Shown piece after piece: positions 25,760 through 64,000 of a DNA stretch of 64,000 nucleotides. Origin of the DNA: Eubacteriales bacterium. GTDB lineage: Bacteria; Bacillota; Clostridia; Oscillospirales; CAG-272. The position numbers and the translations under genes are program-made. The DNA is taken from contig JAZTXO010000152.1 of assembly GCA_045636445.1 (NCBI GenBank), positions 40,370 to 104,369 of the forward strand, written 5' to 3'. A model generated the notes under the pieces. It searched no databases, had not been told where the DNA came from, and was given only the letters and a program-made list of their open reading frames with translations. How positions within the stretch are numbered: position 1 is the first letter of the stretch; each line of letters starts with the position of its first letter.

Positions 25760-25837
25760 TTGCACCTTTCAATTATAATTAGTATAAATAATGCTGCGTT
25801 ATAAGGTCGAACGGTTGCAATTTTTGAGGTGAAAACT

Positions 25838-34834: not shown

Positions 34835-34888
34835 TTTTATATTTCCTTTTTGTTTTTTGCACTCCCCGCAAAACCGAAGAGCAATAAT

Positions 34889-35323
34889 TTAAGCAAAAGA
34901 ATCTGCAAACGCAGTTGCAAGAGCGTCGCATCGCTCGTTGTAGTCGTGACCGTTGTGTCCTTTAACCCAGACGAATTCAACCGTATGAGTTTCGGTCAGA
35001 GCATAAAGTCTTTCCCAAAGGTCGGGATTTTTAAGAGCATCCTTTCCTCGACGCCACCCCGCCTTTTTCCAGGACTCAACCCATCCCAAAAGGAATGCGT
35101 CCACAAGATATTTGGAGTCGGAATAAAGAGTTACTTTGCAAGGCTCTTTAAGAGCTTCAAGACCGCAAATTGCCGCCATAAGCTCCATTCGGTTGTTAGT
35201 GGTACTTGGCTCACCGCCCGAAAGCTCTCTTTCATACTTTCCCCAAACGAGAATAGCTCCGTAGCCGCCTCGACCGGGATTTCCTCGACAAGCTCCGTCG
35301 GTATAAAGCTGAACTTCTTTCAT
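34889..35323 (-). CDS. rnhA: Ribonuclease HI
   Basis: 144 aa. [16 protein letters not shown]..., TNNRMELMA and the DSKYL motif are the canonical RNase H catalytic D-E-D-D pattern. Confidence 0.92.
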
Positions 35324-35356
35324 AAAAGAATCCTTTTTAGGTTAGCTCTGTATTTT

Positions 35357-35393
35357 CAAAAAAACGGACGAGCTGTTGTTCGTCCGTTTTTTT
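35357..35393. terminator. Bidirectional intrinsic terminator
   Basis: A8-CGGACG...CGTCCG-T7. Lies after the 737-aa lipoprotein gene on the minus strand. Confidence 0.8.
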
Positions 35394-35437
35394 GTCGCGG
35401 TACTGCGGGACAATCGCAATACCTTGGTTTAATCAAA

Positions 35438-37651: not shown

Positions 37652-37698
37652 GTCTTAAATCCTTATACCTTTATATAAAATAATTTCAATTACAAATC

Positions 37699-37727
37699 AT
37701 TATACCATACAATAAGCAAAAATGCAA
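37699..37727 (-). promoter_or_regulatory. Promoter for the 737-aa lipoprotein gene (TTGCAT-17-TATAAT with TG extension)
   Basis: Minus strand reads TTGCAT (37727-37722), 17-nt spacer ending in TGG, TATAAT (37704-37699). Confidence 0.5.
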
Positions 37728-37759
37728 ATGTTTTTTTGATTTTTTAAAAATATTTTTAC

Positions 37760-40714: not shown

Positions 40715-40724
40715 ATATACCTCC

Positions 40725-42356: not shown

Positions 42357-42360
42357 CGCT

Positions 42361-43959
42361 TTATCTGTTCTTTCTTCTTATAATTGTAACGGTTCCGACA
42401 GCGGCAAGCACCACCGGTATTGCAAGGAGCATACAGGTATAGAGAATAGACGTACCGAGGGTAAGGTTTTCAAGTCTTTCCTCCTGCATTTCCACACAGT
42501 CTATTCCGTAAGGCATATCAGGGCCGTCATAAAACTCATCGTAGAGTGCATATAAAAAGTCTTTGTTTGCATAGTTGTTGCTTACCATTGCATCGCTTGC
42601 TGCAAGATAAACGCTGGAAATAAATATCATTTTTGCGCTGCGGTCGAAGTTTACCTTCTTCTCCGAGCAGGCAATTACGGTGTGAGGTCCGTCCTCGCCC
42701 TCGTTCTCTCCGCCTGCAACAAGACTTGCGGAAGCAGAGGAAGTGAGCAAAGGTCTTGCTCCAAGGCTTTCGTTGCATTCAAGGGCAGCCGCATCGTTGA
42801 TTATAACGCTGCCGCCAAACCCGTCGATCTTATTTTTGATAGACTGGGCAACCGAATTGTCCGCATAATCTGCAAGAAGCGTAAAGCCGGTAAAGCCTTG
42901 AGTGTTAACACTCTGGTTAAGGTCTTTTACCATAAGACGCTCGCCGTCATCGTTGGTTTTAACGCTTATTCCGAACTCCTCGGAAACAAATTCCTCAAGT
43001 CGGGGAAGACTCTTGGCAAGGGGATCGAGAATAACGTAAAACGCTCCGCCGTTGTCGGAATATTCCTTAAGTCTCATAAGTTCGCTAACGTAATTATCGT
43101 TGGCAGCCTTTTCAAAATCGGTCTTGGGATTGGATATTATAACAAATGCCGCATCCTCGGGAACAGATTCCTTGCGCAGGTTGATTTCGTCAATGTAATA
43201 ACCCGCATAAAGCAGAGAATAGTAGAAATTAGTGCTGGGAACTTCACCGTGTCCGGTTGTAAAGTAAACGGTTTCGTGCTGGTCGTTTATTACCCAGAAT
43301 GCCATCGCAGCAAACACCTCTTCACCGTTGTAGGAGGTTACGTAGCTGTTGGCGTCAAGGGTAAAGAAGTCAACGAAAGCAGAGCTTCCCGAAACAACTC
43401 TTATATTAGAGCGAAGCAGGTTGCCGCTTTGGTCAAAGGTTTCGCACTCGAAAATAACGCTGCTTCTTGAAATTTTGTATTCGTCATAAATGGGATTTCC
43501 CGATTTATCCAGAAGAATTTCACCCGATGCATCCTTACGGGCAACCTTCTGATACTTTTCGGGGCTGAATTTCTCGCCCGATGCATCATCGTATTCGAGA
43601 GTAAAAATGTTAGCGTATCTTATGGAAATAAAATCGCTGTATTTATCTGCATAGTTCATTACGGTCTCACGAACGAACTTACCCTCGGAATGGTTCTGAA
43701 TGTCTGCCTCGCTCATACAGAAAGTAATAGTCAGATGCTTTCCTTGAGCCGCAGCATTGTCAAAATCTTCCTTAACCGCATCGCTAATGCTGAGGTCTTC
43801 TTTTTCAGCAACGGTAGCGCTCGGTCTGGTGTAGACGTAAAGCATATATATAAATGCGTTTGCAAAGATAACCGCCGCTACTATTATCGCCGTCATAACA
43901 GATGGCGAGAAGTTACGGCTGCGGACTACCCTTGTAACCGCTTTCTTAAAATTCATCAT
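42361..43959 (-). CDS. GldG-like ABC-transporter auxiliary protein (copy 1)
   Basis: 532 aa. N-terminal TM (VMTAIIVAAVIFANAFIYMLYVY) and C-terminal TM (...LLAIPVVLAAVGTVTIIRRKNR). Follows the ABC-2 permease. Confidence 0.65.
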   Translation of the reverse strand: MMNFKKAVTRVVRSRNFSPSVMTAIIVAAVIFANAFIYMLYVYTRPSATVAEKEDLSISDAVKEDFDNAAAQGKHLTITFCMSEADIQNHSEGKFVRETVMNYADKYSDFISIRYANIFTLEYDDASGEKFSPEKYQKVARKDASGEILLDKSGNPIYDEYKISRSSVIFECETFDQSGNLLRSNIRVVSGSSAFVDFFTLDANSYVTSYNGEEVFAAMAFWVINDQHETVYFTTGHGEVPSTNFYYSLLYAGYYIDEINLRKESVPEDAAFVIISNPKTDFEKAANDNYVSELMRLKEYSDNGGAFYVILDPLAKSLPRLEEFVSEEFGISVKTNDDGERLMVKDLNQSVNTQGFTGFTLLADYADNSVAQSIKNKIDGFGGSVIINDAAALECNESLGARPLLTSSASASLVAGGENEGEDGPHTVIACSEKKVNFDRSAKMIFISSVYLAASDAMVSNNYANKDFLYALYDEFYDGPDMPYGIDCVEMQEERLENLTLGTSILYTCMLLAIPVVLAAVGTVTIIRRKNR

Positions 43960-43987
43960 AACTCAGATTTCTTCCTTTTCGATTTGA

Positions 43988-44698
43988 TCAGTTATATCTG
44001 CGGCGGTCGTAAACACGTACGGTAAGATAAAGGAACAGCGCGCCGAGAGTAACGTAGAATATGATTGCAGACCAATCAAAATATCCTGCGGTAAAGGCGT
44101 TAAATCTGGAGAATATGGAAAGAGAGTCAAGCACGTATCTTATATCGTAGCTTGCGGGGATAAGACTGGAAAGAAGACCGGTCACAAGGAATGCAAATAT
44201 TATCGCTATTGTTCCTACCGCAGCGGAAAGCTGGTTTTCGGTAAGGGACGAAACGAAAAGTCCTATGGAAATAAACACCGCGCCAACCAAAAGAAGAGCG
44301 ACAATATTTCCAAGAAGCACAGCGCCCTTAAAGGTTATTGCGTAAGGTATAAGCAAAAGGAAATAAAGGGAGGTAAAAACAAGAGCCATAGCAAACATAG
44401 CGTAAGCCGCAAGGAATTTACCCAATACCATACCCGTAAGCGATACGGGGGAGGTAAGAACGAGCTGCTCGGTTTTAAGCTTTCGCTCTTCGCTGAAGGA
44501 TTTCATCGTAAGAAGAGGAAGCACGATTGCCGAAAACAGAAGCATAGCCACGAAATAGCTCGTCACGTTTGCCGACATAGAAAACAAGGTGGTAAAGCAG
44601 AATACTGCCGCAGCCATAGTGAGAAATACAACTAAAAATACATAACCCACAACGCCCGTAAAGTAAGAGCGGAATTCTCTTTTAAAAATTGCTAACAT
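43988..44698 (-). CDS. ABC-2 type transporter permease (GldF-like)
   Basis: 236 aa with 6 TM. The N-terminus MLAIFKREFRSYFTGVVGYVFLVVF is typical of the ABC-2 / GldF family. Confidence 0.8.
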   Translation of the reverse strand: MLAIFKREFRSYFTGVVGYVFLVVFLTMAAAVFCFTTLFSMSANVTSYFVAMLLFSAIVLPLLTMKSFSEERKLKTEQLVLTSPVSLTGMVLGKFLAAYAMFAMALVFTSLYFLLLIPYAITFKGAVLLGNIVALLLVGAVFISIGLFVSSLTENQLSAAVGTIAIIFAFLVTGLLSSLIPASYDIRYVLDSLSIFSRFNAFTAGYFDWSAIIFYVTLGALFLYLTVRVYDRRRYN

Positions 44699-44712
44699 TT
44701 CTTCTTTCTCCT

Positions 44713-45708
44713 TTAGTGAGCTTTTCTCATTTTGTTTTTCTTCTGCTCTGCTCCCGACTCGGACTTGTCCACAAGGTTGATGAATATGGTTTCAAGGTCG
44801 GTTCCTATGGCAGAAAGTCCAACGATAGGCCAATTGTTTGCCGCGCAAGCGCTGAAGATGGATTTTCTCATATCAATACCGGGCTGGCTTTCCGCAACGT
44901 AAACGTATGCTTCGCCGTCTCTTGCGCCGGTAGCGTCAATCTTCTTAACCGCGCCGAGAGCGCCAACAGCGGGAACAACGTCTTTAGGCTGAGCGCATAT
45001 CTTTATTTCGTAGCGGTATCCGCCCTCGATAGTCTTGGTAAGGTCGGCAGTCTTTGCATCGGCTATAATGTTACCCTTGTTGATAATTATAATTCTTTCG
45101 CAAACGGCTTGTACCTCTGCAAGAATATGGGTGGAAAGTATTACTGTGTGACGGCGGCCGAGAGTTCTTATAAGGTTTCTGACCTCCAGAATCTGCTTCG
45201 GGTCAAGACCTACCGTAGGCTCGTCGAAAATTATGATTTTAGGATCGCCTATAAGAGCCTGGGCAATACCTACGCGCTGCTTGTAACCCTTGGAAAGGTT
45301 GCGTATAAGTCTGCTCTTGACCTCGGTGAGCTTTGCTACCGAAAGGATCTCGTCAATATGAGGCTTTCTTTCAAGCTTACAGCCTTTCAGCTCGTAAACG
45401 AAATCAAGATATTCTCTTACAGTCATCTCGGGATAAATGGGCGGCTGCTCGGGCAAAAATCCGATGTTCCTTTTTGCCTCGATGGGATCTTCAAGTATAT
45501 CAACTCCGTTTATGTATGCCACGCCCGACGTTGCCGAAAGGTAACCTGTCAGAATATTCATCGTCGTACTCTTACCAGCTCCGTTAGGGCCGAGAAGACC
45601 AACGATCTCTCCTTCGTTTACCTCAAAAGAAATGTCGTTAAGAGCGTAATTTGTTCCGTATTTTTTTACAAGATTTTCAATCTTAATAACGGGATTAGTT
45701 GCTTCCAT
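44713..45708 (-). CDS. ABC transporter ATP-binding protein (ABC-2/GldA-like)
   Basis: 331 aa. Walker A GPNGAGKST, signature LSKGYKQRV, Walker B IIIFDEPTVGLD, and a C-terminal accessory domain. Confidence 0.92.
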   Translation of the reverse strand: MEATNPVIKIENLVKKYGTNYALNDISFEVNEGEIVGLLGPNGAGKSTTMNILTGYLSATSGVAYINGVDILEDPIEAKRNIGFLPEQPPIYPEMTVREYLDFVYELKGCKLERKPHIDEILSVAKLTEVKSRLIRNLSKGYKQRVGIAQALIGDPKIIIFDEPTVGLDPKQILEVRNLIRTLGRRHTVILSTHILAEVQAVCERIIIINKGNIIADAKTADLTKTIEGGYRYEIKICAQPKDVVPAVGALGAVKKIDATGARDGEAYVYVAESQPGIDMRKSIFSACAANNWPIVGLSAIGTDLETIFINLVDKSESGAEQKKNKMRKAH

Positions 45709-52338: not shown

Positions 52339-54195
52339 ATGATGAAGCTTAATTTTAAAGTAGACGATTCCTTGAATATCGGCATTGACAGACTGTCGAG
52401 CGTTCTCGGCTTTGAGTGCGGCGAGGGCATCTCGGTTACCGCCGTAAACGGCGACAAAATCGGTGTAAGCCTGAAAAATAACAATGCGGTCATTTACTAC
52501 CGCAATAAGGCACAGTTCTTCCGCGGACTGGGTGTTCTTCTTGAAAAGGCGAAAGTCTCTTCCGAGTTTGAAATTTTCGAGGACGGTTTCTTTGAAACCC
52601 TTTCCGCTATGATAGACTCCTCTCGTTGCGGTGTTCCTACCGTTAAGACCGTAAAAAGCCTTATCGACTACCTTGCGGTTATGGGCTACAATATGGTTAT
52701 GCTCTATACCGAGGACGTTGTGGAGCTTGAAGGACGCCCCTACTTCGGCTATATGCGCGGCAGATACACGGTAGCCGACCTTAAGGAAATCGACGATTAC
52801 GCATACGAATACGGCATTGAGGTAATTCCTTGCCTTGAGTGCTACGGTCATATGGAAAAATATCTTATCTGGAACGAGGCTTCTCCCATAAGAGATACCG
52901 CAGGCGTTCTTCTCGCCAGAGAGCCAAAAACCTTTGAATTCGTTGAAGAGCTTATCTCCACCGTTACAGGCGCTCTCCGTTCAAAGAGAATACATATCGG
53001 TATGGACGAAGCTTGGGATATGGGACGCGGAAAGTTCCTAGATAAACACGGCTACGTGCCTCCCTTTGACATTTTCAACGAGTTTATGGACGGCCTTATC
53101 GCTATCACTAACAAATACGGCCTTAAGCCTATGATGTGGAGCGATATGTATTTCCGTATCAGCAACAAAAACAACGACCTCTATTACGAAAAAAGCACCG
53201 TCATTCCCGACGACGTAAAGGCTAAAATTCCCGAAGAGGTAGAGCTTGTATTCTGGCATTACGGCGAAGAGCCTTGGTGCGACGATTATATGCTGAAAAA
53301 GCATAACGAGCTTGACCGAAAGGTTATTTTCGCAGGCGGAAACTGGGGTTGGATAGGTCACTTCCCCGAACACAACTATATGAGAGAAACCTCTCGCTTC
53401 TCTCTTAATGCCTGCCGTAATAACAACGTTAAGGAAGCAATGCTCACCATCTGGTGCAACGATAACGCAGAGTGCGATCCCTTTGCTAATCTTTACGGAA
53501 TGTCCTATTTCGCAGAGCTTTGCTATAACCCCAACTTCACCGAAGAAGAGTTTAAATCAAGATTTGAAAGCTGTACGGGCGCTGATGCCGATCTCTTCTA
53601 CAAGATGAGCTACTACCACAACGATTTCGAGAGAAATCCTAAGTTTGAAAGCTATAGCAGACGCTTCCTCGGCAAACCTCTCTTCTGGCAGGATATTATG
53701 GAAGGTCTTTACGACACCCACCTCTTTAGTAAGAAGATGTCCGACCACTACGAGGCTACCGCAAAGGTCTATGAAGGTAAGTCAAGCGACGAAAAATGGG
53801 GTTATCTTTACGACTACGCTTTCTGCGTTATGGATTACCTTGCTACAAAGACGTATATTGCCGAAAATCTCGTTCCCGCATACAAGTCGGGCAACAAGGA
53901 GCTTTTGAGAAATATTGCCGAAAAGCAGCTTCCTCTTCTTAAAGAAAAGACTGTCAGAGTTCATGCATCCCATAAAAACGCATGGCTCAAAAACAACAAA
54001 GTTATCGGTTGGGCAAATATGGACGTGCGTTACGGCGGTGTTGCCGCAAGATGCGACACTGCAAGTATGCTTATCCTCTCCTACCTTAACGGTGAAATCC
54101 AAAAGCTTGACGAGCTTGAAGAAACAAGACTTGAAAAGGGGCTTTCCGGCTTTGTTCACTACTCGGGAATCGTTACTCCCAACATAAAAATATAA
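52339..54195 (+). CDS. Glycoside hydrolase family 20-like (beta-N-acetylhexosaminidase-like), cytosolic
   Basis: 618 aa. TIM-barrel pattern with ...YNMVMLYTED..., ...EVIPCLECYGHME... and RIHIGMDEAWDMG, which resembles the GH20 H-x-G-x-D-E catalytic region. No signal peptide. Confidence 0.55.
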   Translation: MMKLNFKVDDSLNIGIDRLSSVLGFECGEGISVTAVNGDKIGVSLKNNNAVIYYRNKAQFFRGLGVLLEKAKVSSEFEIFEDGFFETLSAMIDSSRCGVPTVKTVKSLIDYLAVMGYNMVMLYTEDVVELEGRPYFGYMRGRYTVADLKEIDDYAYEYGIEVIPCLECYGHMEKYLIWNEASPIRDTAGVLLAREPKTFEFVEELISTVTGALRSKRIHIGMDEAWDMGRGKFLDKHGYVPPFDIFNEFMDGLIAITNKYGLKPMMWSDMYFRISNKNNDLYYEKSTVIPDDVKAKIPEEVELVFWHYGEEPWCDDYMLKKHNELDRKVIFAGGNWGWIGHFPEHNYMRETSRFSLNACRNNNVKEAMLTIWCNDNAECDPFANLYGMSYFAELCYNPNFTEEEFKSRFESCTGADADLFYKMSYYHNDFERNPKFESYSRRFLGKPLFWQDIMEGLYDTHLFSKKMSDHYEATAKVYEGKSSDEKWGYLYDYAFCVMDYLATKTYIAENLVPAYKSGNKELLRNIAEKQLPLLKEKTVRVHASHKNAWLKNNKVIGWANMDVRYGGVAARCDTASMLILSYLNGEIQKLDELEETRLEKGLSGFVHYSGIVTPNIKI

Positions 54196-54235
54196 CAAAA
54201 AGTCAATAATAGTTTACAAAAAGGCGAATTTGACA

Positions 54236-55189
54236 ATGGCAAACTTATTAAAGCATTACGCAAGCTTACATTCACATTCCACACATTCTGACGGAGTTTA
54301 TACTCCCAAGGAGCTTGTAAAAGTCGCAAAAGACGAGGGATACGGAGCAATAGCTCTTACCGACCACGACACCGTAACCGGCAACGCCGAGGTAAAGGCA
54401 GAGTGCGAAAAGGCGGGAATTGAGAGCATCTTCGGCGTTGAGTTTTCTACTCAAACTCCCGTGCTTGACCGAGAGTTCCACATGACGGCTTATCACTTTG
54501 ACCCGGAGTATCCCGAAATGAAGGAATATCTGTGGCAAATGAGCGAGAGAGAAACCGACCAGACTCGCAAACTTTTTGAACGCGGTGTTTCTATCGGCTA
54601 CATTAAGGGCATAACCTGGGATGAGGTTGTGGAATACAACAAGGGAATCAGCTGGTTCTGTAACGACCACGTTTTCAGAGCTATGAAGGCAAAAGGACTT
54701 GTTTGCGACCTTGACTATCCCGAATTTTTCAACACCTGCTTTGGTGAGCACCGTCATACAATTCCTCCGAAATACAAATTTTTAGATGCGGAAAAGCTTA
54801 TTCCCCTTGTTCATAAGGCGGGCGGAATAATCCTTATTGCCCATCCTCACACCCAGCTTGATTGCATGGAATATCTTGTGGGACTTGGCATTGACGGCAC
54901 GGAAATCTGGAGCTCTAACCTTGACGGAGCAGAACGCAGAGAAGCTCTTAAGCTGGCAGATAAATTTGACCTCTACGTTGGCGGCGGCTCTGACCACGAG
55001 GGCATTCTCGGCGGCGAGTACATTCATTACGAGCATCCCGAAGAAACTCCTATTTGGTTCCCACCCTGCGCTCTCGGAACAACAAAGTATTTCTTTGAAG
55101 AAATCCGAGATATGAAGAAAAAGGCAGACCGTCACGAGGTTATGCAAAAAATGATTGATGACTCCACTATTTGGGAAAGGATACGATAA
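54236..55189 (+). CDS. PHP-domain metal-dependent phosphoesterase
   Basis: N-terminal LHSHSTHSDG and LTDHD motifs of the PHP (polymerase/histidinol phosphatase) family. ATG at 54236. Confidence 0.75.
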   Translation: MANLLKHYASLHSHSTHSDGVYTPKELVKVAKDEGYGAIALTDHDTVTGNAEVKAECEKAGIESIFGVEFSTQTPVLDREFHMTAYHFDPEYPEMKEYLWQMSERETDQTRKLFERGVSIGYIKGITWDEVVEYNKGISWFCNDHVFRAMKAKGLVCDLDYPEFFNTCFGEHRHTIPPKYKFLDAEKLIPLVHKAGGIILIAHPHTQLDCMEYLVGLGIDGTEIWSSNLDGAERREALKLADKFDLYVGGGSDHEGILGGEYIHYEHPEETPIWFPPCALGTTKYFFEEIRDMKKKADRHEVMQKMIDDSTIWERIR

Positions 55190-55190
55190 A

Positions 55191-55745
55191 ATGAACGAAT
55201 TTGATTCACCTAATTACGCTGAATTTTCATACGAAGTAAAAAGCGAGGGAAAAGTTAAAACGCTTCGCACTCTTGCGGTTATCGGATACGTGGCGTTTGT
55301 TGCTGCATTTTTCCTGGTTTGCTACTTATCCAGAGTTATTCCCCTATTTGCTTTAGCGCCTATCTTTACCTGGATTCTCATATTCTTCACCTGGAGTCTT
55401 GTAAAATTCGACTACTATTTTGAATTCAAGACCGGAATGTTAGAGCTTGGAAAAATTACCGGCGGTAAAAAGGGCAGAAAAAAACAGCCGAAGCTTACTG
55501 TTCACGTAAAAGAAGCCGAATTTATCGCTCCCTTTGAAGGCGAATACACCGAAAAAGTGAAGGAAGCAACAGAAATTTACGACCTCTCCTCTTCACAAAG
55601 CTCGGACAAGAGAATTATTCTTCTCTACACCGACAAAGGCGTAAAACGCGCCGTAATCTTCGAGGGTACGGCAAGAATTGCCAATCTTCTCGCATCATTC
55701 TGCCAAAATTCGGTTGACCTTAAAGGAAAACAATTCCACGGATAA
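55191..55745 (+). CDS. Membrane protein of unknown function (2 TM hairpin plus soluble C-terminal domain)
   Basis: 184 aa from the ATG at 55191, which starts 1 nt after the PHP gene's stop codon (TAA 55187-55189) (translational coupling). Two adjacent TM helices (aa ~25-70) and a basic patch GGKKGRKKQPK. Confidence 0.5.
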   Translation: MNEFDSPNYAEFSYEVKSEGKVKTLRTLAVIGYVAFVAAFFLVCYLSRVIPLFALAPIFTWILIFFTWSLVKFDYYFEFKTGMLELGKITGGKKGRKKQPKLTVHVKEAEFIAPFEGEYTEKVKEATEIYDLSSSQSSDKRIILLYTDKGVKRAVIFEGTARIANLLASFCQNSVDLKGKQFHG

Positions 55746-55809: not shown

Positions 55810-57144
55810 TTAAATTCCCGCTTTTTTGCGGTTTTCTTCAAGAATTGCGATATACTTTTCGTATTCTGCTCTTCCGAAGATTGGAGGACGGTCTTTAAGT
55901 CCAAGCACGTCCATAGAGAAGTTTATGAGCTGTGGGCCGGAAATTATAGTTGCGTTTACGTCGCTTTCAGGCATATTGGGAAGCGTTACCGGCATACTCT
56001 GGGAAAGCTCGGAGGAACGGTTTTTAAGATAAGAGAATCCTCCGTCGGGCTTTCTGAACGCCTTAATTTTATTTATTGTCTTGCGAACAACCTGAACCGC
56101 ATCCTTGTAAAGAATACTTCTTATCTCGCCAACCTTTTTTTCGGCTTCCTCTTTTGAATGAGTAGCATAAATGTTGCTCATAAGGGAAGAAAGAGTGTAC
56201 CAGGAGTTGTAAACGTCGCAAACTATTCCAACAGGATCGTCGGAATAAATTCCGTCAAGAGCAACCTGAATACTTTTGTTAAGATTGGGAATCGGTCTTT
56301 TTGCCATATTATAGAGGAATGAGATTTTGAAAAGACCGTTTTGTCCGTGGTAAGGAATAAATTCCTCAGTACCCGGCTGTCTGAAATCCCAGTGTCCGTA
56401 CTCGGTGTTCTGGTGGGAGTCGAGGAAGTCAAAGAGCACCTCGAAAATTTCTCCGTTAAGCTCTTCGTTTCTCATTTTTATCTGATTTGCCTGAGCCGCA
56501 AGAGCGTTTCCGTGGCCGTAAGAGTGCTTTGCAAAGTCCATAGCCTCAAGATATTCACGGAATACCTTTCCGTCTTGAAGATGCGGAGCGTAAGTCGCTT
56601 TCGGAGCGTCAGCCTTTTTCTCTGCGTCGGGATTTTGAGCTGTCTCCATAGGTCGCTCGCCCTTTACTCCGTCGGGACAGTCATAGGTGGGAAGTACGCC
56701 ATAATTACGGAGAATACTGTTTGCCCACATTAAATCCCTGCCTCTTCTGTGAGGCTTTTTGTCGGTGTCCTCCACCGTCCACTGGGGATGATAGAAATAT
56801 CCGTTGGGGCGCTGCATATCCTTTGTAAACTTTACTATCTTCTCACCCATCCAATCGGGAAGCGCCTTTGCATATTGTCTGCCAAAATCGTCGGCAAGTC
56901 CTAGGTCGCGGAACATTTCCAGCGCCTGATGGGTACTTTCAAGGTCGGGAAGAAATCCCTCGTTATCCCTTGCTCCGTTAGAATAATAGTATCCGCCAAT
57001 CTTGGGGTCGAAAAGGTTTGCTACCCAATCAATAAGCGAATCGTCAAATACAGCATAAAATTCCTTATATGCTTCAGCGAGTTTTTGTCCGTCCTCGCCG
57101 CCAATCTGGTCGGCAAATTTTTGCCACTGTTCTTCTCTGGTCAT
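55810..57144 (-). CDS. Cytosolic alpha/alpha-toroid protein (prenyltransferase / terpene-cyclase-like repeats), unknown function
   Basis: 444 aa, no signal peptide. Repeats of the type GGYYYS....GFLPDLESTHQAL and DGGFSY.... Collinear paralogue of aa ~215-690 of the adjacent 1529-aa lipoprotein. RBS GGAGGG. Confidence 0.5.
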   Translation of the reverse strand: MTREEQWQKFADQIGGEDGQKLAEAYKEFYAVFDDSLIDWVANLFDPKIGGYYYSNGARDNEGFLPDLESTHQALEMFRDLGLADDFGRQYAKALPDWMGEKIVKFTKDMQRPNGYFYHPQWTVEDTDKKPHRRGRDLMWANSILRNYGVLPTYDCPDGVKGERPMETAQNPDAEKKADAPKATYAPHLQDGKVFREYLEAMDFAKHSYGHGNALAAQANQIKMRNEELNGEIFEVLFDFLDSHQNTEYGHWDFRQPGTEEFIPYHGQNGLFKISFLYNMAKRPIPNLNKSIQVALDGIYSDDPVGIVCDVYNSWYTLSSLMSNIYATHSKEEAEKKVGEIRSILYKDAVQVVRKTINKIKAFRKPDGGFSYLKNRSSELSQSMPVTLPNMPESDVNATIISGPQLINFSMDVLGLKDRPPIFGRAEYEKYIAILEENRKKAGI

Positions 57145-57204
57145 TTTTTAGCCCTCCATAGGCTGTTTTTTGCAAAAATGTAAATAATAGTTTGTTTTTG
57201 TTAT

Positions 57205-57228
57205 GCTACGCTCCATAAGGAGCGTAGC
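57205..57228 (+). terminator. Hairpin whose U-tract lies on the + strand, between two minus-strand genes
   Basis: GCTACGCTCC-ATAA-GGAGCGTAGC followed on the + strand by AATTTTTTAT. On the coding (minus) strand it is followed by AUAACAAAAAC. Confidence 0.35.
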
Positions 57229-57237
57229 AATTTTTTA

Positions 57238-60200
57238 TCAGTCTGCTTTTTTGAGAACTGTGTTATCAAGATACATAGTTCCCGTACCGCCGGTAGTGGG
57301 CTGAACCAAAACTTGATAGATCGAGCCGATATCCTTGGTGTTAACAGTGTGAGCGGTGAACGCCTCAACATCGTTTATATAAAGAGTAAACTTCGCTCCG
57401 GTGTCGGGATCGGTGGACTTGTCACCCGCCTTTGCCACAACACGAACGTTGAACCATCCGTCCTCGGGCACAGCTCCGCAATCCACCTTGGTTGTGCCGG
57501 TAAGACCGCCCCAAAGGTGTCCGCCGCTTACGTTAAGGTCCATAAGGAACAGGTGAGTTCCGCCGGACTGGTTAGCGAAGTAGAAGGTAACTGTGCTTTG
57601 CCAACCGCCGCTACCAAGTGAGCCCGTAAGCTTCATATCCGTTTCAAATTCGAAACTAGAGTAGGTTTTACCGTCACCGAAGTAGACGTTCACACCGTTT
57701 GAATAACTATTCACAGTCTTGTTAAGTACGAATACCTTGGTGAGTTTGCCATCACGCTCTACGTATTCAATAGTGCTGTTCTGAATGGTGTTATTGCCTG
57801 CCGCAACTCTGTTCGGATAGTTACCGATACTGCTGTACTCGTAGGTAATAACCTCGTCGGTATCATCCTTTGTGCTTCCCTCAACGCTGGGAGCAGTATA
57901 AGTAATTGTAAGTCCGTCAAGGTACATATCGTCAACCGAGATATTCTGGGCGCTAACGGTTGCGGCTGCAACCTCGCCGTACTCCGCAGAGTTGAATACG
58001 TTGGTAACAAGAATTATTTCGTCGTTGAGATAAGCCTCAAGAGCTTTTTCGTTTCCGTACAAATTAAAGACGAGATTTCCGCTGCCTCTGAATTTGCAAG
58101 AGCCTATATAATCACCAACGGCTGCATCGTTCATCATCTCGTAGAAGAAGGCCGTTTCGTCCTTAATAGTGATTACAAGTCCGATTATAGTTTTTCCTTC
58201 AGCGTCAATATATTTGACGCAAATCGTATCCTCCGGAGTTGTGTTTCTAAGCTCAATATAGAGAGAAAGCTGATGAGCCGAAACGTAAGCTGCGCGGTTA
58301 TTTACGGGAATTGTAACGTATTTATTTCCTGAAAGGCTAAGCTTACCGTTAGCGAGTATTCCGTTTGTCTTGATGCCTTCAATTTCCGAAAGGCTTTCCT
58401 CGCTGAAATCGTAAAGATTTCTGTCGATCTTAGGCTTTACTTCGTCGGCAAAGCTTGTCACTCTTCTCTCGCAGTAGATGTTGTCAATAGTTCCCTCCAT
58501 CTTTCCGGAGTAGGTTATCATAGCGCTTCCCATTTCGTAAAGGAAGCATTTTGCCGCAACACCCTGCTCGGTTGATGCAATCATCTCACCGTCAAGGTAA
58601 ATAAGCGTTGTCGCCTGATCAACGAAGAAGGCGAATTCAATATGATGTAAGCTTCCGTCAACGGGAATAGCCGCAGAGCTTATGATGGTAGTTCCCTTGT
58701 AAATCGGAGCAAGAACAAGTCCCGCGTCGGTCTTAACCGCTCTCATAGTATACGAAACGATCGTTGATCCCTTATCCGGATCCTTTAAGGCAATAGTAAA
58801 TACGTTGCCCTCCGTTACCGAGTCGACCTTAATGTCAAAGCCTAGCGCAAACACGTTGGAGTGAGTTTTTCTGTTAAGCGCAGGTACTGTAACCTTCGAT
58901 TCGTCGCCAACGCTATTAAAGTTCAATACGCCGTCAGCGAAGTCAAGCTTTGCAGTAGAGCCGCTAACCGTAAAGTTCTCAGGAGCGCCTTCCTCAAGAT
59001 CGTAGATTTCACGCTCTGCGTCAGCATCCTCGTTGATAATAAGTCCCTTTGTATTCTTTTCGTTCTTGTATTCTATCGTCTTGTATCCAAGATATACGTC
59101 GTCGAAATACATATTACAAGCCATATAGCTCATGGGGAAGAAGAGCGCCTGCTTTGCCTCGTCTGTGGGAGTGCCTGTGCCCTCGGTAAACTTGCCCATT
59201 GTATTGTCCATATAGTTTGAACTAACTGCAACTAGCTCATCGTTGGTATAAATCTTAATTCTTACGGTGTCGTGAGGAGTAAGACCGTTTTCAACGTCCT
59301 CGTAGCCGAAGTAGTATTCAACTCGGAGCTTAAACCACTCGTCAAGCCTGAATTTGCCGAGAAGTCTGTCAAAGGAGTTCTGGAAGGTGTCGGAAGAAGC
59401 TTCCCAAACCTCAACGTAATCACCGGCTATGGTGAAGTTTATAAAGTAAGGCGAATCCTTACCCATATATCCGATATACATCTGAATAAGGTAGCCCTGG
59501 CTCGTGCCTTCCTTTGCAAACATAAGCTTTGCATCGTACACAAGACAGTTGTTGTTTGCCTTAACGGTGTTGTTAGGAATTGTAACAGCATCCCAGGTGC
59601 CGGACTTTTCAAGAGACTGGAAGTGAAGCACCTTGTTAGAGGGATTGTGAGGATCGGCAACGACAACAGCCGAGCCGCCGCTTGCCGTAGCAACCGCAAC
59701 ACCCTTAGGCTCAACGTCAATATCGTCCTCTTCAAAGTTGAAGATAACGTCGGGCGGCAGAGCATCCTTTACGGAGAAGGTGTTTTCGTTGATTATATCC
59801 ACAAACATTGCAAGCTCTCTCAGTCCGAAAATTGACGGAAGGCTTACGTTAAGAGCCATGCTCATATGGTCAAGCATACCGCCGGAGCAGATAAGAGAAG
59901 CGTTAATGTCACCCTCGTTCTTTCTGAGAGCCACTACCATTCCCTGAGAGGTCTCGGAGCAATGATCGGGGAAATAGGAGAATGAGCCGTCGATCTTTTT
60001 GAATCTCGCGGTATTTTCTGCGGTTTTTCTTACCGCCATGGGAGCTATTTCTATTACTTTTTCAAGAATTTCATCTGCAATCGCGCCCCTGTTGGGATCG
60101 GGGTGATATGCTCTGATATTGCCGATAAGTCCCTTAATATCGTACCAGGTGTTATAGTCACCGCAAACGTGTCCGGGAAGCTCATCGGAGGAAAGAACGG

Positions 60201-61827
60201 CAAGCGCACTCTGCGCCGCCTGCTCTGCGTAGGGGAAAGCCACTTTAAACGCAGAATAAACCATTATAGCCTTGAAAACGGTGTTAAGTCCGTCGTAGTC
60301 TACCTCCGGACGCCAAAGACCGTTGTCCGAGCGGTGCTTCTGCTCAAACCACTCGAAGAGTACCGGCTTCAATGCTCCGTTAAGTCTCTTGTTCGCGGTG
60401 GTAAGCTGGTCAACCTGGGCTGCAAGCTCGTTTGCCGCAGTGTAGCCCTGACCGTAAACGTCCATTTTGAACTTGGAAAGATAGTTTTCAAAAGCTTCAA
60501 CAGACAAAAGGTGATCGGGAAGCGCCGATGCCGTCTGAACAAGCGCAGAAACGCTCTCTGCTGAAGAGCCGCTCATTTTTCCGGTAAGAAGCGAGCTTGC
60601 AGGCTTCGGTCTGCCGCCCGATCCCACCATACTTCCGGTGGGAGTGGTGTAATAGGGGTTAGCCGAGAGCTTACTCAAGATAGAAGTAGACCACATAAGG
60701 TCTCTCGATACTCTCGCCCAGTTCTCGCGGCTCTGCTCTATTGTCCACTGGGGATGATAGAAATAGCCGTCCTCGTGCTGAAGTCCCTTTGTAAAAGCTA
60801 TAATATCGCTTCTGAGCTGACCTTTAAGGAATGCTCCGAAGTTGCCGCCTGCTCTTTTTAACATTCCCGTCATTTCAAGGAATGTAAGAGCCTGATAGGT
60901 GGACTCTACGTCGGGAAGGAATCCTACCGTGTTTCTTGCGGAATTGGAATAGTAGAATCCGCCGTTTTTGCAAAGGTCGTTGCCGTTTTTGTCAACAGGG
61001 TGTAAGCAAACCTGAATGCCGTTCACGTAATTGTCGCAAACGCATTCTCTCGGCTCGTAAAGGTTAGCAAGCCAGGATACGATGCCGTCGCTGTAAAGCA
61101 TCTTATAGAAATCCTTGAATGCGTCGGTAAGCTCTTTTCCTACCTGCTTCTCGAGAGCTGCCCACTCGTCGTCGCGGTAAGCCTGATCCTCTTCGGCATA
61201 TATTTCGTACATATCGTAAAGCTTTGAGGAAACAACGCCCCTAGGCTTTACAAGGCTTTTATAACCCGCCCAATCGGCAAGAGTTGCGGCAATCTCGGTA
61301 AGATGCTGCGAGCCGATTTCCTCGGTGTAAGCAAGAGCAAGAGACGATCCGTCGGAATAAAGAACGTAACCGCCGATTGCGGGATCTTTATCCTCTAAAA
61401 GAGTTTCGAGCTGGGAATAAGCCATGTGGGAAATCACGCGGTTAGATTCACCGATGATTACTTCATGCTCTGCAGGATCTTCTTCGTCCGAATAAAGAAC
61501 CTTTACTCGCTCTCCAAGATTGTCCTTCATCGCCCAAACGAAATTAACGTAGACGGAAGAATCGAGACTTGCATCGGCAAGGATTATGTTAAGGCTGCTT
61601 TCGGAATTGAATATCATTCCCTCGGTATCGGAGGGAACGTCCTCTCCCTTTAGCTCGTTCGAGGGAGTGTCGGTATTGGAATTATCACCGGAATTGTTGT
61701 TTCCTGTGGAATTGTTGTTTGTTCCGCTGCCATTGCCCTTATTCCCGGTAGTGCAGGATGCGAAAATCGAAACCAGCATAGCCGAAAGAATGAGCAAGGC
61801 TGTTAACTTTTTATAAATCTTTGCCAT
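57238..61827 (-). CDS. Giant surface lipoprotein (1529 aa): alpha/alpha toroid plus multiple LamG/ConA-like jelly-roll domains
   Basis: Lipobox LLILSAMLVSIFA-SC followed by a low-complexity N/G/S/T tether. The toroid region is paralogous to the 444-aa protein. The C-terminal ~800 aa is beta-rich with repeated ...DGxxH.I/VxF... LamG-like modules. The last ~165 aa are shared with the 600-aa neighbour. Confidence 0.6.
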   Translation of the reverse strand: MAKIYKKLTALLILSAMLVSIFASCTTGNKGNGSGTNNNSTGNNNSGDNSNTDTPSNELKGEDVPSDTEGMIFNSESSLNIILADASLDSSVYVNFVWAMKDNLGERVKVLYSDEEDPAEHEVIIGESNRVISHMAYSQLETLLEDKDPAIGGYVLYSDGSSLALAYTEEIGSQHLTEIAATLADWAGYKSLVKPRGVVSSKLYDMYEIYAEEDQAYRDDEWAALEKQVGKELTDAFKDFYKMLYSDGIVSWLANLYEPRECVCDNYVNGIQVCLHPVDKNGNDLCKNGGFYYSNSARNTVGFLPDVESTYQALTFLEMTGMLKRAGGNFGAFLKGQLRSDIIAFTKGLQHEDGYFYHPQWTIEQSRENWARVSRDLMWSTSILSKLSANPYYTTPTGSMVGSGGRPKPASSLLTGKMSGSSAESVSALVQTASALPDHLLSVEAFENYLSKFKMDVYGQGYTAANELAAQVDQLTTANKRLNGALKPVLFEWFEQKHRSDNGLWRPEVDYDGLNTVFKAIMVYSAFKVAFPYAEQAAQSALAVLSSDELPGHVCGDYNTWYDIKGLIGNIRAYHPDPNRGAIADEILEKVIEIAPMAVRKTAENTARFKKIDGSFSYFPDHCSETSQGMVVALRKNEGDINASLICSGGMLDHMSMALNVSLPSIFGLRELAMFVDIINENTFSVKDALPPDVIFNFEEDDIDVEPKGVAVATASGGSAVVVADPHNPSNKVLHFQSLEKSGTWDAVTIPNNTVKANNNCLVYDAKLMFAKEGTSQGYLIQMYIGYMGKDSPYFINFTIAGDYVEVWEASSDTFQNSFDRLLGKFRLDEWFKLRVEYYFGYEDVENGLTPHDTVRIKIYTNDELVAVSSNYMDNTMGKFTEGTGTPTDEAKQALFFPMSYMACNMYFDDVYLGYKTIEYKNEKNTKGLIINEDADAEREIYDLEEGAPENFTVSGSTAKLDFADGVLNFNSVGDESKVTVPALNRKTHSNVFALGFDIKVDSVTEGNVFTIALKDPDKGSTIVSYTMRAVKTDAGLVLAPIYKGTTIISSAAIPVDGSLHHIEFAFFVDQATTLIYLDGEMIASTEQGVAAKCFLYEMGSAMITYSGKMEGTIDNIYCERRVTSFADEVKPKIDRNLYDFSEESLSEIEGIKTNGILANGKLSLSGNKYVTIPVNNRAAYVSAHQLSLYIELRNTTPEDTICVKYIDAEGKTIIGLVITIKDETAFFYEMMNDAAVGDYIGSCKFRGSGNLVFNLYGNEKALEAYLNDEIILVTNVFNSAEYGEVAAATVSAQNISVDDMYLDGLTITYTAPSVEGSTKDDTDEVITYEYSSIGNYPNRVAAGNNTIQNSTIEYVERDGKLTKVFVLNKTVNSYSNGVNVYFGDGKTYSSFEFETDMKLTGSLGSGGWQSTVTFYFANQSGGTHLFLMDLNVSGGHLWGGLTGTTKVDCGAVPEDGWFNVRVVAKAGDKSTDPDTGAKFTLYINDVEAFTAHTVNTKDIGSIYQVLVQPTTGGTGTMYLDNTVLKKAD

Positions 61828-61861: not shown

Positions 61862-61885
61862 GGGCGAATTTTCGCCCCGTTTTTC
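61862..61885 (+). terminator. GC-rich hairpin with a + strand U-tract in the leader region of the 1529-aa gene
   Basis: GGGCGAA-TT-TTCGCCC followed by CGTTTTTC on the + strand. Confidence 0.35.
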
Positions 61886-61985: not shown

Positions 61986-63788
61986 TCAATCTTCTACTGT
62001 ATAGAACTTGTCGTTTCTGAAGGCAATGCTGGATTCACCTGCGTCATCGCTTGGCTCGAACTGAACGTTACCGAGCTTGTTGGTGCTGTTAAGCGCTCCT
62101 TGGTAAACGATCTGGTCGTTAATGTAAATGGTAAGAACGCCGGGAGTGGTAACACCGTCAGCGCTAAGGGCAGAAACTACGTCGATCTTAAGGGTGAACC
62201 AACCGTCGTCTGCGATAGGAGTATCGAGAGTTGTGGTTGTGGTCGTAATGCCGGTTCCCTTGATATAGAAGGAGTTCTTCTGGATCGTTATCTGGGGGTT
62301 AATAAGGTTAGAGCTGCCGGCAAGAGTCTGAAGATTTAAAAGGAAGTAGTTACGCCAGCCGGAGTTATAAAGTGCACCCGTAAGCTTCATTTCGGTTTCA
62401 AATACGGCGTGCTGAAGTCTAGTACCGTCGTAGGTAAAGTAAACCGAACCGTAATTGGTGTTTTCAGCCGCCTTGGAAACAACGACGTACTTACCGTTTT
62501 CGTCATACTCAAAGGTTGCGGTGGTGTTTGCACTGCTGTTACCAACGGTCATTATGCTGGAGGTTGCGCCAACCGAAACCGCATCAAAGGTAGCCACGCC
62601 TGCATTGGTCGTTGCGCTAACGCCGCTGAAGGAAGAGTTTTGAGTGGAGGTAAGGTCGCTCTTTGTCACGTACTCGCCGTTTACGTAGTAGAATACCACG
62701 CCCATAAGATTTTTGGTGGAAAGAACGGTGTATTCAACGCGAAGAGTTGCGCCGTTTGCCATCTCGAAGGAGGATACTCCGTCAGAAACGGTAACCTTGC
62801 CCGCACCCTCGGTGAGAGTAACGCTAAGAACGTCGGGGTTGAATTGAAGAGTCGCAGATGCACCCTCAGAGAGGATAACGTCGCCCTCAATGAAGAACTC
62901 CGAGCCGCCGTTAACGGTAACCGAATCGGGGTTGGGGATAGTTGCGGAATTTCCTGCGGGAATGGTTGCGGATACAACGTCGATGTCACCGTAAACCGCC
63001 TTAACGGTTGCGTAACCGATCTTATTAACGCTTACGGTAAGCTTGTTAAAGTCTGCATCTGCGATTATCTCGCCATTTTCATTTTCGAAATGATCGAAGA
63101 GCTTGCCGCCCGAGCTTTTGGGAGCTACAATCTGGTAGTCGGTAGGCTCTCTGAAGTTCTTAAGAGTAACGCTGCCGTCACCGTTCACGATTCTAAGACC
63201 GTAATATGCGTCGGAATAGCCGTATGCAGGCTCCTTGCCCTCGGTAATCTTCTCCGCGTTCTGTACCGAGCCGGAGAAATCAAGGGTTGCAAGGTAAAGA
63301 AGATACTGCTCGTCGGTGTAATTTCCGCTGCCGAGACGGGTCATAAGGTAATCGTAAACCGAGAAGCCAACTCTTGCGCCGCCGGCAACGATGTTACCCT
63401 GCGCGTCGGTGATAACGGGGAATGCGTAAACCTTTTTGTTAATTTCGGCAGGCTCAAAGCCGTCGGAATAAACTGCCTTATACGCCTTGCCGCCAACGGT
63501 AACGGTGCCAAAGGACGAGGAAACGAAATCAAAGTCCGCAGGGTTAAGAGTGCCTGTGGGAGCTGCGCAATTCTCGTCGTAGGAGAAGGCGATCTGCACC
63601 TTCTGTCCCGCTGCGAGAGAGGAATTATCAACTGTGTAAAGGATTCTCGTTGCGCCGTCGTAAGAAACGTTTGCAGCAACGATTTCAACCGTGGGTGCGT
63701 CTGCCGCAGATGCGGTAAGTCCTACCACTGCTCCGATAAGGAGAAGGCAGGATACTACAATAGCTAAAATCTTTTTAGTTTTCATCAT
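61986..63788 (-). CDS. Secreted 600-aa protein with a C-terminal LamG/ConA-like module
   Basis: Sec signal MMKTKKILAIVVSCLLLIGAVVGLTASA-AD, then beta-rich sequence. The C-terminal ...FETEMKLTGALYNSGW...DDGWFTLKIDV...LTIYINDQ... is paralogous to the C-terminus of the 1529-aa protein. Confidence 0.55.
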   Translation of the reverse strand: MMKTKKILAIVVSCLLLIGAVVGLTASAADAPTVEIVAANVSYDGATRILYTVDNSSLAAGQKVQIAFSYDENCAAPTGTLNPADFDFVSSSFGTVTVGGKAYKAVYSDGFEPAEINKKVYAFPVITDAQGNIVAGGARVGFSVYDYLMTRLGSGNYTDEQYLLYLATLDFSGSVQNAEKITEGKEPAYGYSDAYYGLRIVNGDGSVTLKNFREPTDYQIVAPKSSGGKLFDHFENENGEIIADADFNKLTVSVNKIGYATVKAVYGDIDVVSATIPAGNSATIPNPDSVTVNGGSEFFIEGDVILSEGASATLQFNPDVLSVTLTEGAGKVTVSDGVSSFEMANGATLRVEYTVLSTKNLMGVVFYYVNGEYVTKSDLTSTQNSSFSGVSATTNAGVATFDAVSVGATSSIMTVGNSSANTTATFEYDENGKYVVVSKAAENTNYGSVYFTYDGTRLQHAVFETEMKLTGALYNSGWRNYFLLNLQTLAGSSNLINPQITIQKNSFYIKGTGITTTTTTLDTPIADDGWFTLKIDVVSALSADGVTTPGVLTIYINDQIVYQGALNSTNKLGNVQFEPSDDAGESSIAFRNDKFYTVED

Positions 63789-63809: not shown

Positions 63810-64000
63810 TTAATTTTCTTTAACCAAATCGGTATCAACGAGACCGATGGAATAGAAGTCGTAATTATAGGTTGCGTTTGCCTGAGTTGCGATCTGCATA
63901 TAAGCAGGATGCCAGGTTCCTTCCTTCAAGGTACCGCTATAAGCGCCCTGAGGAGCTTCAAGCTCGATCTTCTCACCGTCGAGATAGAAGTTTACAACGC
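63810..64000 (-). CDS. 3' end of a further minus-strand gene (partial; start outside window), jelly-roll-like C-terminus
   Basis: Minus-strand translation ...VNFYLDGEKIELEAPQGAYSGTLKEGTWHPAYMQIATQANATYNYDFYSIGLVDTDLVKEN* with stop at 63812-63810. Not in the ORF track because no start lies in the window. Confidence 0.45.
   Translation of the reverse strand, partial: VVNFYLDGEKIELEAPQGAYSGTLKEGTWHPAYMQIATQANATYNYDFYSIGLVDTDLVKEN

Follow-up and report, generated by a model that had tools for sequence, protein, structure and literature searches.

The gene pair and its locus

Our study examined a 64,000-nucleotide (nt) stretch of a Eubacteriales genome (assembly GCA_045636445.1, contig JAZTXO010000152.1, positions 40,370 to 104,369), hereafter the window, in which two neighbouring genes encode a surface lipoprotein of 1529 amino acids (aa) and a cytosolic protein of 444 aa that corresponds over its whole length to one domain of the lipoprotein (Table 1). 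An earlier, sequence-only reading had described this domain as a prenyltransferase- or terpene cyclase-like alpha/alpha toroid, present as an exported and an intracellular form. When the two proteins were compared by BLASTP, the result was a single collinear alignment (aa 3-438 of the 444-aa protein to aa 218-682 of the lipoprotein, 33% identity, E = 2e-73), which places the homology of the two far above chance. The family hidden Markov model (HMM) placed the lipoprotein toroid at nt 59776-61197, against nt ~59760-61185 as first read, and all of the shared blocks quoted in that reading were recovered in the alignment: W(V/L)ANL(F/Y).P, GG(Y/F)YYSN.AR...GFLPD.EST.QAL, GYFYHPQWT, RDLMW..SIL and DG.FSY.

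Homologous loci were collected from GTDB, with one genome per species. This search yielded 270 matching stretches, of which 68 loci were kept, and all locus statistics refer to these 68 and the window (69 loci), in which open reading frames (ORFs) were called and scanned with the family HMM. The localization of the two forms was consistent across this set. The window lipoprotein begins with a signal peptide and lipobox (MAKIYKKLTALLILSAMLVSIFAS-C25, by inspection and pattern), followed by an Asn/Gly/Ser-rich linker, and a pattern-based search found a hydrophobic N-terminus followed by a Cys in 75/75 lipoprotein homologues. A hydrophobic N-terminus was found in 0/83 stand-alone homologues, and the 444-aa protein leaves no room for a signal peptide, its listed ORF being the longest possible, so the division into an exported and an intracellular form was upheld. 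The Cys-rich insert that had been noticed in the exported copy (aa 261-286) was likewise seen only in this class: a strict pattern detected it in 8/72 lipoprotein toroids and 0/76 stand-alone toroids; the four-Cys insert is also present in two further proteins, P0107 and P0119.

Table 1. Positions of the gene pair, its domains and other features in the window
Feature	Position (nt)	Strand	Basis or remark
Stand-alone cytosolic toroid protein, 444 aa; the domain is the entire protein	55810-57144	-	ORF, AlphaFold2, BLASTP
Surface lipoprotein, 1529 aa	57238-61827	-	Signal peptide/lipobox, linker, N-domain, toroid, four beta modules; 100% match to P0264 (NCBI contig)
Signal peptide with lipobox IFAS-C25, aa 1-25	61753-61827	-	Sequence inspection
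Low-complexity Asn/Gly/Ser-rich linker, aa 26-67	61627-61752	-	Sequence
N-terminal alpha/beta domain of the lipoprotein, aa 68-205	61213-61626	-	AlphaFold2 model and Foldseek
Lipoprotein toroid domain, aa 211-684	59776-61197	-	Family HMM placement, BLASTP, AlphaFold2
Four-Cys insert ECVCDNYVNGIQVCLHPVDKNGNDLC, aa 261-286, Cys 262/264/274/286	60970-61047	-	Directly before the first GG(F/Y)YYS hairpin
Four ~200-aa modules, aa 694-924, 925-1117, 1118-1311 and 1312-1529 (approximate bounds)	57241-59748	-	hhalign, motif positions
Secreted 600-aa partner, signal-peptidase-I type leader, third conserved cassette component	61986-63788	-	Sequence, homologous loci
Second secreted-family gene, 3' end, clipped by the window edge	63810-64000	-	Translation matches the C-terminus of L009 1735-3288
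Cytosolic GH20C-like hexosaminidase-type gene	52339-54195	+	Pfam Glyco_H_20C_C E = 4e-38, Glyco_hydro_20 E = 1e-13
PHP-family phosphoesterase	54230-55189	+	Pfam E = 4.7e-15
Heparinase II/III-like lyase, 569 aa, without signal peptide	25829-27538	+	28 kb from the pair
T-box leader RF00230	31130-31356	-	109 bits, E = 3.5e-23; upstream of a PLP-dependent (PALP) enzyme gene, 29781-31010

Fold and family membership of the toroid

The AlphaFold2 model of the 444-aa protein, built on a 90-sequence alignment, reached a predicted local distance difference test (pLDDT) score of 95.5 and a predicted template modelling (pTM) score of 0.93, and was all-helical with four short beta-hairpins. The shared domain is confidently predicted to be an (alpha/alpha)6 toroid with four prenyltransferase-type repeats. 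The hairpins carry G-G/N-G-aromatic motifs (IGGYYYS, NGYFYHP, YGHWDF and DGGFSY), and each is followed by a loop and then by a helix starting D/N-x-x-x-T/S/N. Judged by the sequence together with the DSSP string, this is the repeat of the prenyltransferase / terpene cyclase / thioester domain (TED) superfamily. The proposed fold class was right, because the modelled repeats and the Foldseek matches are all toroids, and the weak Prenyltrans and TED matches described below agree with it.

Family-level assignment gave a different outcome. Pfam Prenyltrans (PF00432) scored 15 bits (E = 0.017) on the 444-aa protein, below its cut-off of 26.5, with sub-threshold matches spanning aa 34-126, and matched weakly in 18/90 relatives (best E = 1.1e-3). 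The Pfam TED model (PF07678) scored 10.1 bits against a cut-off of 22 and matched weakly in 4/90 relatives. An NCBIfam scan of the toroid returned no match, none of the Pfam glycoside hydrolase (GH) and polysaccharide lyase (PL) models matched it, and the sequences of the PDB gave no significant match, whether searched with the protein alone or with the family or lipoprotein profile, the motif of a complement C4 TED reaching only E = 0.66. Foldseek against the PDB returned toroids only (class II terpene cyclases, GH105/GH88, GH76, GH9 and complement TED), with no match below E 1e-3 in the PDB or viral libraries, a template modelling (TM) score of at most 0.46 in the PDB and no match in the viral library. 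The class II terpene cyclases ranked first (E 1.3e-3 to 7e-3, TM 0.31-0.46, root-mean-square deviation 10-13 Å). By both sequence and model the toroid therefore appears to lie outside every characterized family, as the first reading had held, and Pfam, NCBIfam and the PDB offer it no curated home.

The ranking of the fold matches raises the question of whether the toroid is an isoprenoid- or lipid-directed enzyme, akin to class II terpene cyclases or prenyltransferases, that would work on both faces of the membrane, with polyprenyl-linked envelope intermediates or diet-derived terpenoids, sterols or saponins as its substrates. The best PDB fold matches were the beta/gamma toroids of class II terpene cyclases, namely 8pak (the 'squalene-hopene cyclase' of Cystobacter fuscus, E = 1.3-1.7e-3), MstE (6sbg/6sbb), drimenyl diphosphate synthase and Rv3377c, which have in common with our family the outer helix, the G-G-aromatic hairpin and the D-x-x-x-T inner-helix repeats. 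The protein prenyltransferase beta subunit (PF00432) has the same repeat pattern, the toroid adjoins the lipid anchor, and among the conserved residues are several Arg and Lys that could hold a diphosphate. However, identity to the cyclases is only 10-12% and the TM score stays at or below 0.46. There is no conserved DxDD column, the string D.DD occurring anywhere in just 10/173 toroids, and the near-invariant Asp motif instead reads D-x-E-S-T (D in 147/148 domains, E in 145, S in 140 and T in 146). This P-D-x-E-S-T would stand where cyclases have P-D-x-D-D-T, but no alignment supported the placement: a sub-profile of the first two repeats gave only chance influenza HA2 matches (E ~0.5) and did not align to cyclases or prenyltransferases. 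None of the Cys columns is near-invariant in 148 domains (the most conserved reaches 57%), so there is no prenyltransferase-type Asp/Cys/His Zn site, and no prenyltransferase alpha-subunit gene was seen. Furthermore, the conserved residues are mainly polar, unlike the aromatic and aliphatic lining of a cyclase cavity; the protein has one toroid where the cyclases have a beta-gamma didomain; one form is extracellular whereas the cytosolic form has no membrane anchor; and the recurrent neighbours are glycosidases and AraC regulators rather than isoprenoid genes. We consider such an enzyme unlikely. The prenyltransferase/terpene cyclase label thus stood at the level of fold and repeat and failed for the defining catalytic features.

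A similar argument applies to the complement/alpha2-macroglobulin thioester domain, from which the lipoprotein might be read as a surface protease trap or a covalent adhesin. This domain belongs to the same toroid superfamily, and bacterial alpha2-macroglobulins are also large lipoproteins with beta-sandwich modules, as is the ~1500-aa lipoprotein with its many beta modules; the weak PF07678 and C4 matches and the C3/C5 fold matches (E 0.1-0.6) point in the same direction. The thioester CxEQ, however, occurs in just 1/173 toroids, Pfam detected no A2M or MG domains, and the domain order differs, with the toroid placed near the N-terminus. An obligatory cytosolic paralogue, AraC control and glycosidase neighbours would be left unexplained. 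Because the thioester is absent, we regard this reading as very improbable and as largely refuted already. The thioester, DxDD and Zn-site readings were accordingly all rejected on motif counts across 148-173 family domains.

The same fold class also holds the (alpha/alpha)6 enzymes of GH76, GH88/GH105, GH9 and GH15 and the toroid polysaccharide lyases, with weak matches to 4ce7, 4q88, 4d4c, 1ks8 and 5noa. The (alpha/alpha)6 glycoside hydrolase fold matches ranged from E 0.009 to 0.3 and had no accompanying sequence match. None was significant, and the repeats are prenyltransferase-like rather than of the six-hairpin glycosidase kind.

The N-terminal domain and C-terminal modules of the lipoprotein

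The AlphaFold2 model of lipoprotein aa 55-720 (pLDDT 90.7) showed an alpha/beta N-domain (aa 68-205) ahead of the toroid. Foldseek matched this domain to GH84 (6pv4_A, probability 0.98), GH20 (8pxv/8pxt and 7dvb) and GH115 (7pxq and 4c90), over 148-168 columns with probabilities of 0.85-0.98 and weak E values of 0.07-0.2, and Pfam Glyco_hydro_20b found no match in it. The resemblance of the modelled domain to the N-terminal domain of GH84/GH20/GH115 glycosidases is therefore weak but consistent. As in GH20, GH84, GH67 and GH115 enzymes, the domain lies directly before the core, although the core of those enzymes is a (beta/alpha)8 barrel, where a toroid is found here, and the stand-alone form has no N-domain.

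The C-terminal ~835 aa comprise four mutually homologous modules (hhalign probability 97-100%, E 5e-11 to 6e-39), each of which closes with a [FIVL]D[DN]x[YV]L strand. A tail of about 800 aa of LamG/ConA-type jelly rolls had been proposed; the tail consists of these four modules, and the ConA/LamG label appeared only as sub-threshold or precomputed matches in relatives. Pfam, including Laminin_G_3 (PF13385), gave no match on the modules of the window lipoprotein. Its relatives showed sub-threshold Laminin_G_3 and PA14 matches and precomputed PF13385, PF06439 or PF14099 assignments, and some paralogues carried precomputed Laminin_G_3, 3keto-disac_hyd, Polysacc_lyase, Alginate_lyase2 or CE4 deacetylase domains. 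The last lipoprotein module is similar to the C-terminus of the secreted 600-aa neighbour (E = 3.5e-8), in whose family 5/44 members gave a weak Laminin_G_3 match. The four modules are probably ConA/LamG-like jelly rolls, judging from these relatives. A layout of N-domain, core and ConA-like modules is typical of carbohydrate-active enzymes, and exo-glycosidase genes lie close by.

Distribution of the family and the conserved cassette

A profile search over 1.84 billion representative proteins found 1,456 clusters of the toroid family, 976 of them at E < 1e-30. None is named, and all homologues are 'hypothetical proteins' of uncultured Clostridia. The 68 kept loci come from ~15 metagenome-assembled genomes (MAGs) labelled Eubacteriales, Clostridia, Oscillospiraceae or uncultured Ruminococcus, and the stated hosts of the toroid-bearing MAGs are roe deer or water deer, sampled from the gut. 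No description of the toroid family or of the lipoprotein/cytosolic pairing was found in Pfam (2025), NCBIfam (2026), the PDB or the literature searched. The domain family, its union with a GH20b-like N-domain and the ~1:1 occurrence of surface lipoproteins and their cytosolic paralogues appear to be undescribed; the fold is already known, as is the general idea of multi-copy, regulator-linked surface-protein cassettes.

The 69 loci contain 75 toroid lipoproteins, 675-2351 aa in total length with the toroid at aa ~180-690, and 83 stand-alone toroid proteins of ~405-535 aa. The two forms occur at a ratio of ~1:1 per genome (for example, 15:17, 9:9, 11:10 and 12:10), and for 49/75 lipoproteins a stand-alone gene lies within 400 nt on the same strand, with a median gap of 26 nt and some overlapping genes. 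Within 5 kb of a toroid gene, a secreted family of ~520 aa, to which the 600-aa window protein belongs, was found in 44/69 loci and an AraC regulator with a cupin domain in 34/69. The usual gene order is AraC, lipoprotein, stand-alone and secreted protein. The pair is thus the constant core of a four-gene cassette, consisting of the AraC regulator, the lipoprotein, the stand-alone toroid and one or two secreted proteins, and it has been multiplied within a narrow group of uncultured gut Clostridia, some genomes of which contain 15 loci or more. One MAG alone holds at least 15 toroid loci among the 68 kept. Single genomes carry at least 30 family genes (~15 lipoproteins of 1,300-2,200 aa and their partners), and the family must therefore be central to the life of these Clostridia.

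In the window, the 600-aa, 1529-aa and 444-aa genes are co-directional on the minus strand. The cassette extends past the window edge, and in the orthologous loci L001 and L009 the AraC gene lies beyond the second secreted gene, further upstream. A terminator and promoter scan around the window genes performed no better than on shuffled sequences. A hairpin with an 11-bp stem and seven GC pairs is present between the lipoprotein and stand-alone genes (57204-57229), with its T-run on the plus strand, which is the wrong orientation to terminate minus-strand genes, and a similar hairpin follows the secreted-protein gene (61862-61877).

Several loci depart from the usual arrangement. A tandem array in L007 (379-17921) contains three lipoproteins followed by six stand-alone toroids, L043 (2080-21233) has six lipoproteins in a row, and L068 (5359-14273) encodes four cytosolic toroids, all of them extended by ~200 aa at the C-terminus. 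A 932-aa secreted protein in L012 (15839-18637) joins an N-terminal part of the secreted-partner type to a toroid at aa 457-929, as does P0126. On its domain content, the L012 fusion may be read as a Rosetta-stone link from the third cassette component to the toroid. A Pfam scan of unusual architectures for informative fusions found only Flg_new repeats.

Conserved residues and co-variation of cognate pairs

Although the toroids are only ~37% identical overall, conservation reaches at least 85% at 46 columns in the stand-alone and the lipoprotein class alike, and nearly every conserved residue is common to the two paralogues. About 35 polar or aromatic positions are near-invariant over 148 domains. 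Those conserved in at least 138/148 include the aromatics W40, Y53, Y118, W122 and W315, the motif P-D67-x-E69-S-T-x-Q73, and H119, Q121, R133, R136, D137, K273, N313, E393, D395 and N397. Some of the conserved Asp residues are probably structural helix caps, given the repeat pattern.

The toroids fall into a stand-alone and a lipoprotein class: for 139/148 domains the closest relative belongs to the same class. Cognate pairs were 40.1% identical (range 27-57%, median 39%) compared to 36.3% for non-cognate pairs, and cognate divergence was correlated (r = 0.41 for paralogues at < 60% identity; permutations 0 +/- 0.05). Furthermore, 38/391 variable columns were shared within pairs beyond expectation (p <= 0.002), and the co-varying columns adjoin conserved residues (68/72/76, 272/276/280, 306-314, 373-384 and 405-411). 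This pattern suggests that cognate neighbours have a shared history or a shared constraint.

Recent gene conversion was considered as a cause of the cognate similarity and rejected. The longest shared DNA words were 21-25 nt and fell in conserved motifs, and three longer words were overlapping ORF ends; gene conversion fails because the long shared words are all accounted for by such ends or by conserved motifs. This bears on whether the lipoprotein is a variable surface antigen with the cytosolic genes as donor cassettes, or whether the pair is a phage-defence or mobile-element module. A high copy number, tandem arrays and highly variable C-terminal regions on proteins of 675-2351 aa would suit such a system, as would the slightly greater likeness of cognate copies. 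The range of cognate identity is nevertheless too low for donor copies, and the stand-alone genes are intact, with their own starts and all conserved residues kept. PADLOC returned no match for the three window proteins and generic HTH matches only for the helix-turn-helix (HTH) fusion described below, and there was no viral fold match. An antigenic or defence role is, in our view, highly improbable.

Gene neighbourhood and probable glycan context

Cytosolic sugar-processing genes were found in 29/69 loci, often interleaved with the cassette on the same strand. They comprise GH20C-like (9/69) and DUF4838 (6/69) genes together with GH1, GH4, GH43, GH39, GFO/IDH/MocA, NagA and NagB. Examples of the interleaved order are AraC, lipoprotein, GH20C and, further along, stand-alone (L028); lipoprotein, stand-alone, secreted protein, DUF4838 and GH20C (L034); and AraC, lipoprotein, stand-alone, GH4 and secreted protein (L059).

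The sequence-only reading had drawn its glycan-processing theme from cytosolic GH20-like, heparinase-like and six-hairpin neighbours within the window. The GH20-like gene was confirmed; the heparinase-like gene is real but lies 28 kb off, and the 'six-hairpin' protein (27821-29641) could not be verified. The theme itself held, mainly through the interleaved glycosidases and AraC genes of other loci, as the window neighbours are mostly outside the conserved unit. It rests more strongly on those other loci than on the in-window neighbours.

Fusions of the toroid to a helix-turn-helix domain

About a dozen proteins of ~685 aa (P0035 and ~11 relatives) combine an XRE-type HTH, an SRA/methyl-directed-REase-like domain and a toroid. 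Two of these fusions head cassettes without AraC (L027 5357-7411 and L031 457-2520), and that of L031 sits in the stand-alone position, with a 4-nt overlap with the lipoprotein gene. The fused toroids retain 32/35 key positions, with the fixed changes Q73F, W252F and Q382H. The fused protein is presumably a regulator, and its architecture indicates that a toroid in the cytosol is able to act in ligand sensing.

These fusions bear most directly on the possibility that the toroid only binds. The lipoprotein would then be a surface capture protein, with a role like that of the SusD/E/F-like proteins of Bacteroidetes, the cytosolic paralogue would be a sensor informing AraC, and the HTH fusion would be a one-polypeptide sensor. 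The replacement of AraC by a fusion in L027 and L031, with its key positions largely kept, fits this proposal, and the ~1:1 pairing and the co-variation at variable positions fit a common ligand; complement and alpha2-macroglobulin TED domains also provide a precedent for this fold as a non-enzymatic module. On the other hand, ~35 near-invariant polar residues across paralogues that are presumably diverse in ligand look more like conserved chemistry, the AraC of most cassettes already has its own cupin ligand-binding domain, and up to six tandem stand-alone copies (L007) would be odd for sensors. A binding-only toroid is possible, although we find it doubtful.

A proposed glycan-acquisition cassette with matched toroids

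The reading that we favour, with a probability of roughly one in two, is a glycan-acquisition cassette whose surface and cytosolic toroid modules are matched in specificity. It draws directly on the observed homology, localization signals, ~1:1 pairing, amplification, conserved site, cognate co-variation and gene association. Each cassette would handle one glycan. The lipid-anchored protein would display its toroid at the cell surface, between the glycosidase-type N-domain and variable ConA-like or other carbohydrate-type modules, where the toroid would recognize the polymer and probably cleave it. The cytosolic paralogue might then perform the same chemistry or recognition on an imported fragment, and co-encoded cytosolic exo-glycosidases would complete the breakdown. 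The AraC regulator would turn the cassette on, and the HTH-toroid fusion would do so in one lineage. That the ligand is a glycan, and that a fragment of it is imported, we infer.

Within this glycan-cassette model, the invariant polar constellation and a modular layout like that of glycosidases tip the balance somewhat towards a catalytic rather than a binding-only toroid. The pairing of an extracellular depolymerase with a cytosolic processing enzyme, to which the first reading had compared the pair, may be a fair analogy, and the cautious interpretation of that reading was largely borne out, the family proving to be new. More tentatively, the toroid may be the catalytic core of a new carbohydrate-active family and the cassette an undescribed Gram-positive Sus-like utilization system, with matched outside and inside enzyme copies or with the cytosolic copy as a matched sensor.

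Comparison with polysaccharide utilization loci (PULs) is instructive in this respect. As in the Sus-like PULs of Bacteroidetes and in Gram-positive PULs, there are many paralogous, separately regulated cassettes with surface lipoproteins, a regulator and glycosidases. Unlike those systems, the cassette has no SusC/D and no ABC or PTS transporter. Of the features by which Gram-positive PULs are recognized, a regulator and carbohydrate-active genes were found (AraC in 34/69 loci and sugar genes in 29/69), and a co-located transporter was not. To our knowledge, a surface protein with a cytosolic paralogue of the same domain occurs in no described PUL type.

A number of observations weigh against the glycan-acquisition reading. 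Glycosidase neighbours are missing from 40/69 loci, and the GH20C-like gene of the window is on the opposite strand and outside the operon, a recurrent but loose associate. No transporter, multi-transmembrane or ABC-sugar family recurred within 5 kb in the 69 loci, which leaves a gap in the route from outside to inside. The toroid could be matched to no CAZy-type family, catalytic motif or solved relative. Its top fold matches are terpene cyclases rather than glycosidases, at E ~1e-3 and TM <= 0.46, and the accessory modules can be assigned only weakly as ConA-like. The key residues kept in the HTH fusion would suit binding no less than catalysis. All conclusions are also computational and drawn from MAG sequences.

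If the toroid is an enzyme, the breakdown of glycans in the gut would gain a new catalytic family with many specificities; a sensor role of the cytosolic copy would mean a new coupling of surface capture to gene control. The surface/cytosol pairing offers a clean, testable handle on this choice, and the 444-aa protein is an easy first target for screening and crystallography because it is small, soluble and confidently modelled.

Other features of the window

The 569-aa heparinase-like protein matched 8r75 (E = 2.6e-37) and the PL35 chondroitinase 9o3q (E = 1.7e-14), with no match in Pfam. Between the GH20C-like gene and the toroid pair lies the gene of the PHP-family phosphoesterase, for which the closest NCBIfam model was 3',5'-nucleoside bisphosphate phosphatase, below cut-off; it occurs near toroid cassettes in four loci, three of which are mutually orthologous. 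A 196-aa membrane protein (55155-55745, plus strand) overlaps the end of the PHP gene and is cassette-adjacent only in the closest relative. Its translation probably starts from the ATG at 55191, given that the L009 homologue starts with MNEFDSPNY.

Elsewhere, an uncharacterized envelope or export cluster on the minus strand (33089-45708) encodes an ABC ATPase, an ABC-2 permease and two ABC_transp_aux proteins and, upstream of these, three large proteins of 581, 737 and 984 aa that matched no Pfam family; the 737-aa protein has a lipobox-like AFASC. A T-box leader precedes the PLP-dependent (pyridoxal phosphate) enzyme gene listed in Table 1. A 606-aa protein (9147-10967, minus strand) gave a weak match to Wzy_C (O-antigen ligase) at E = 1e-3, below cut-off.

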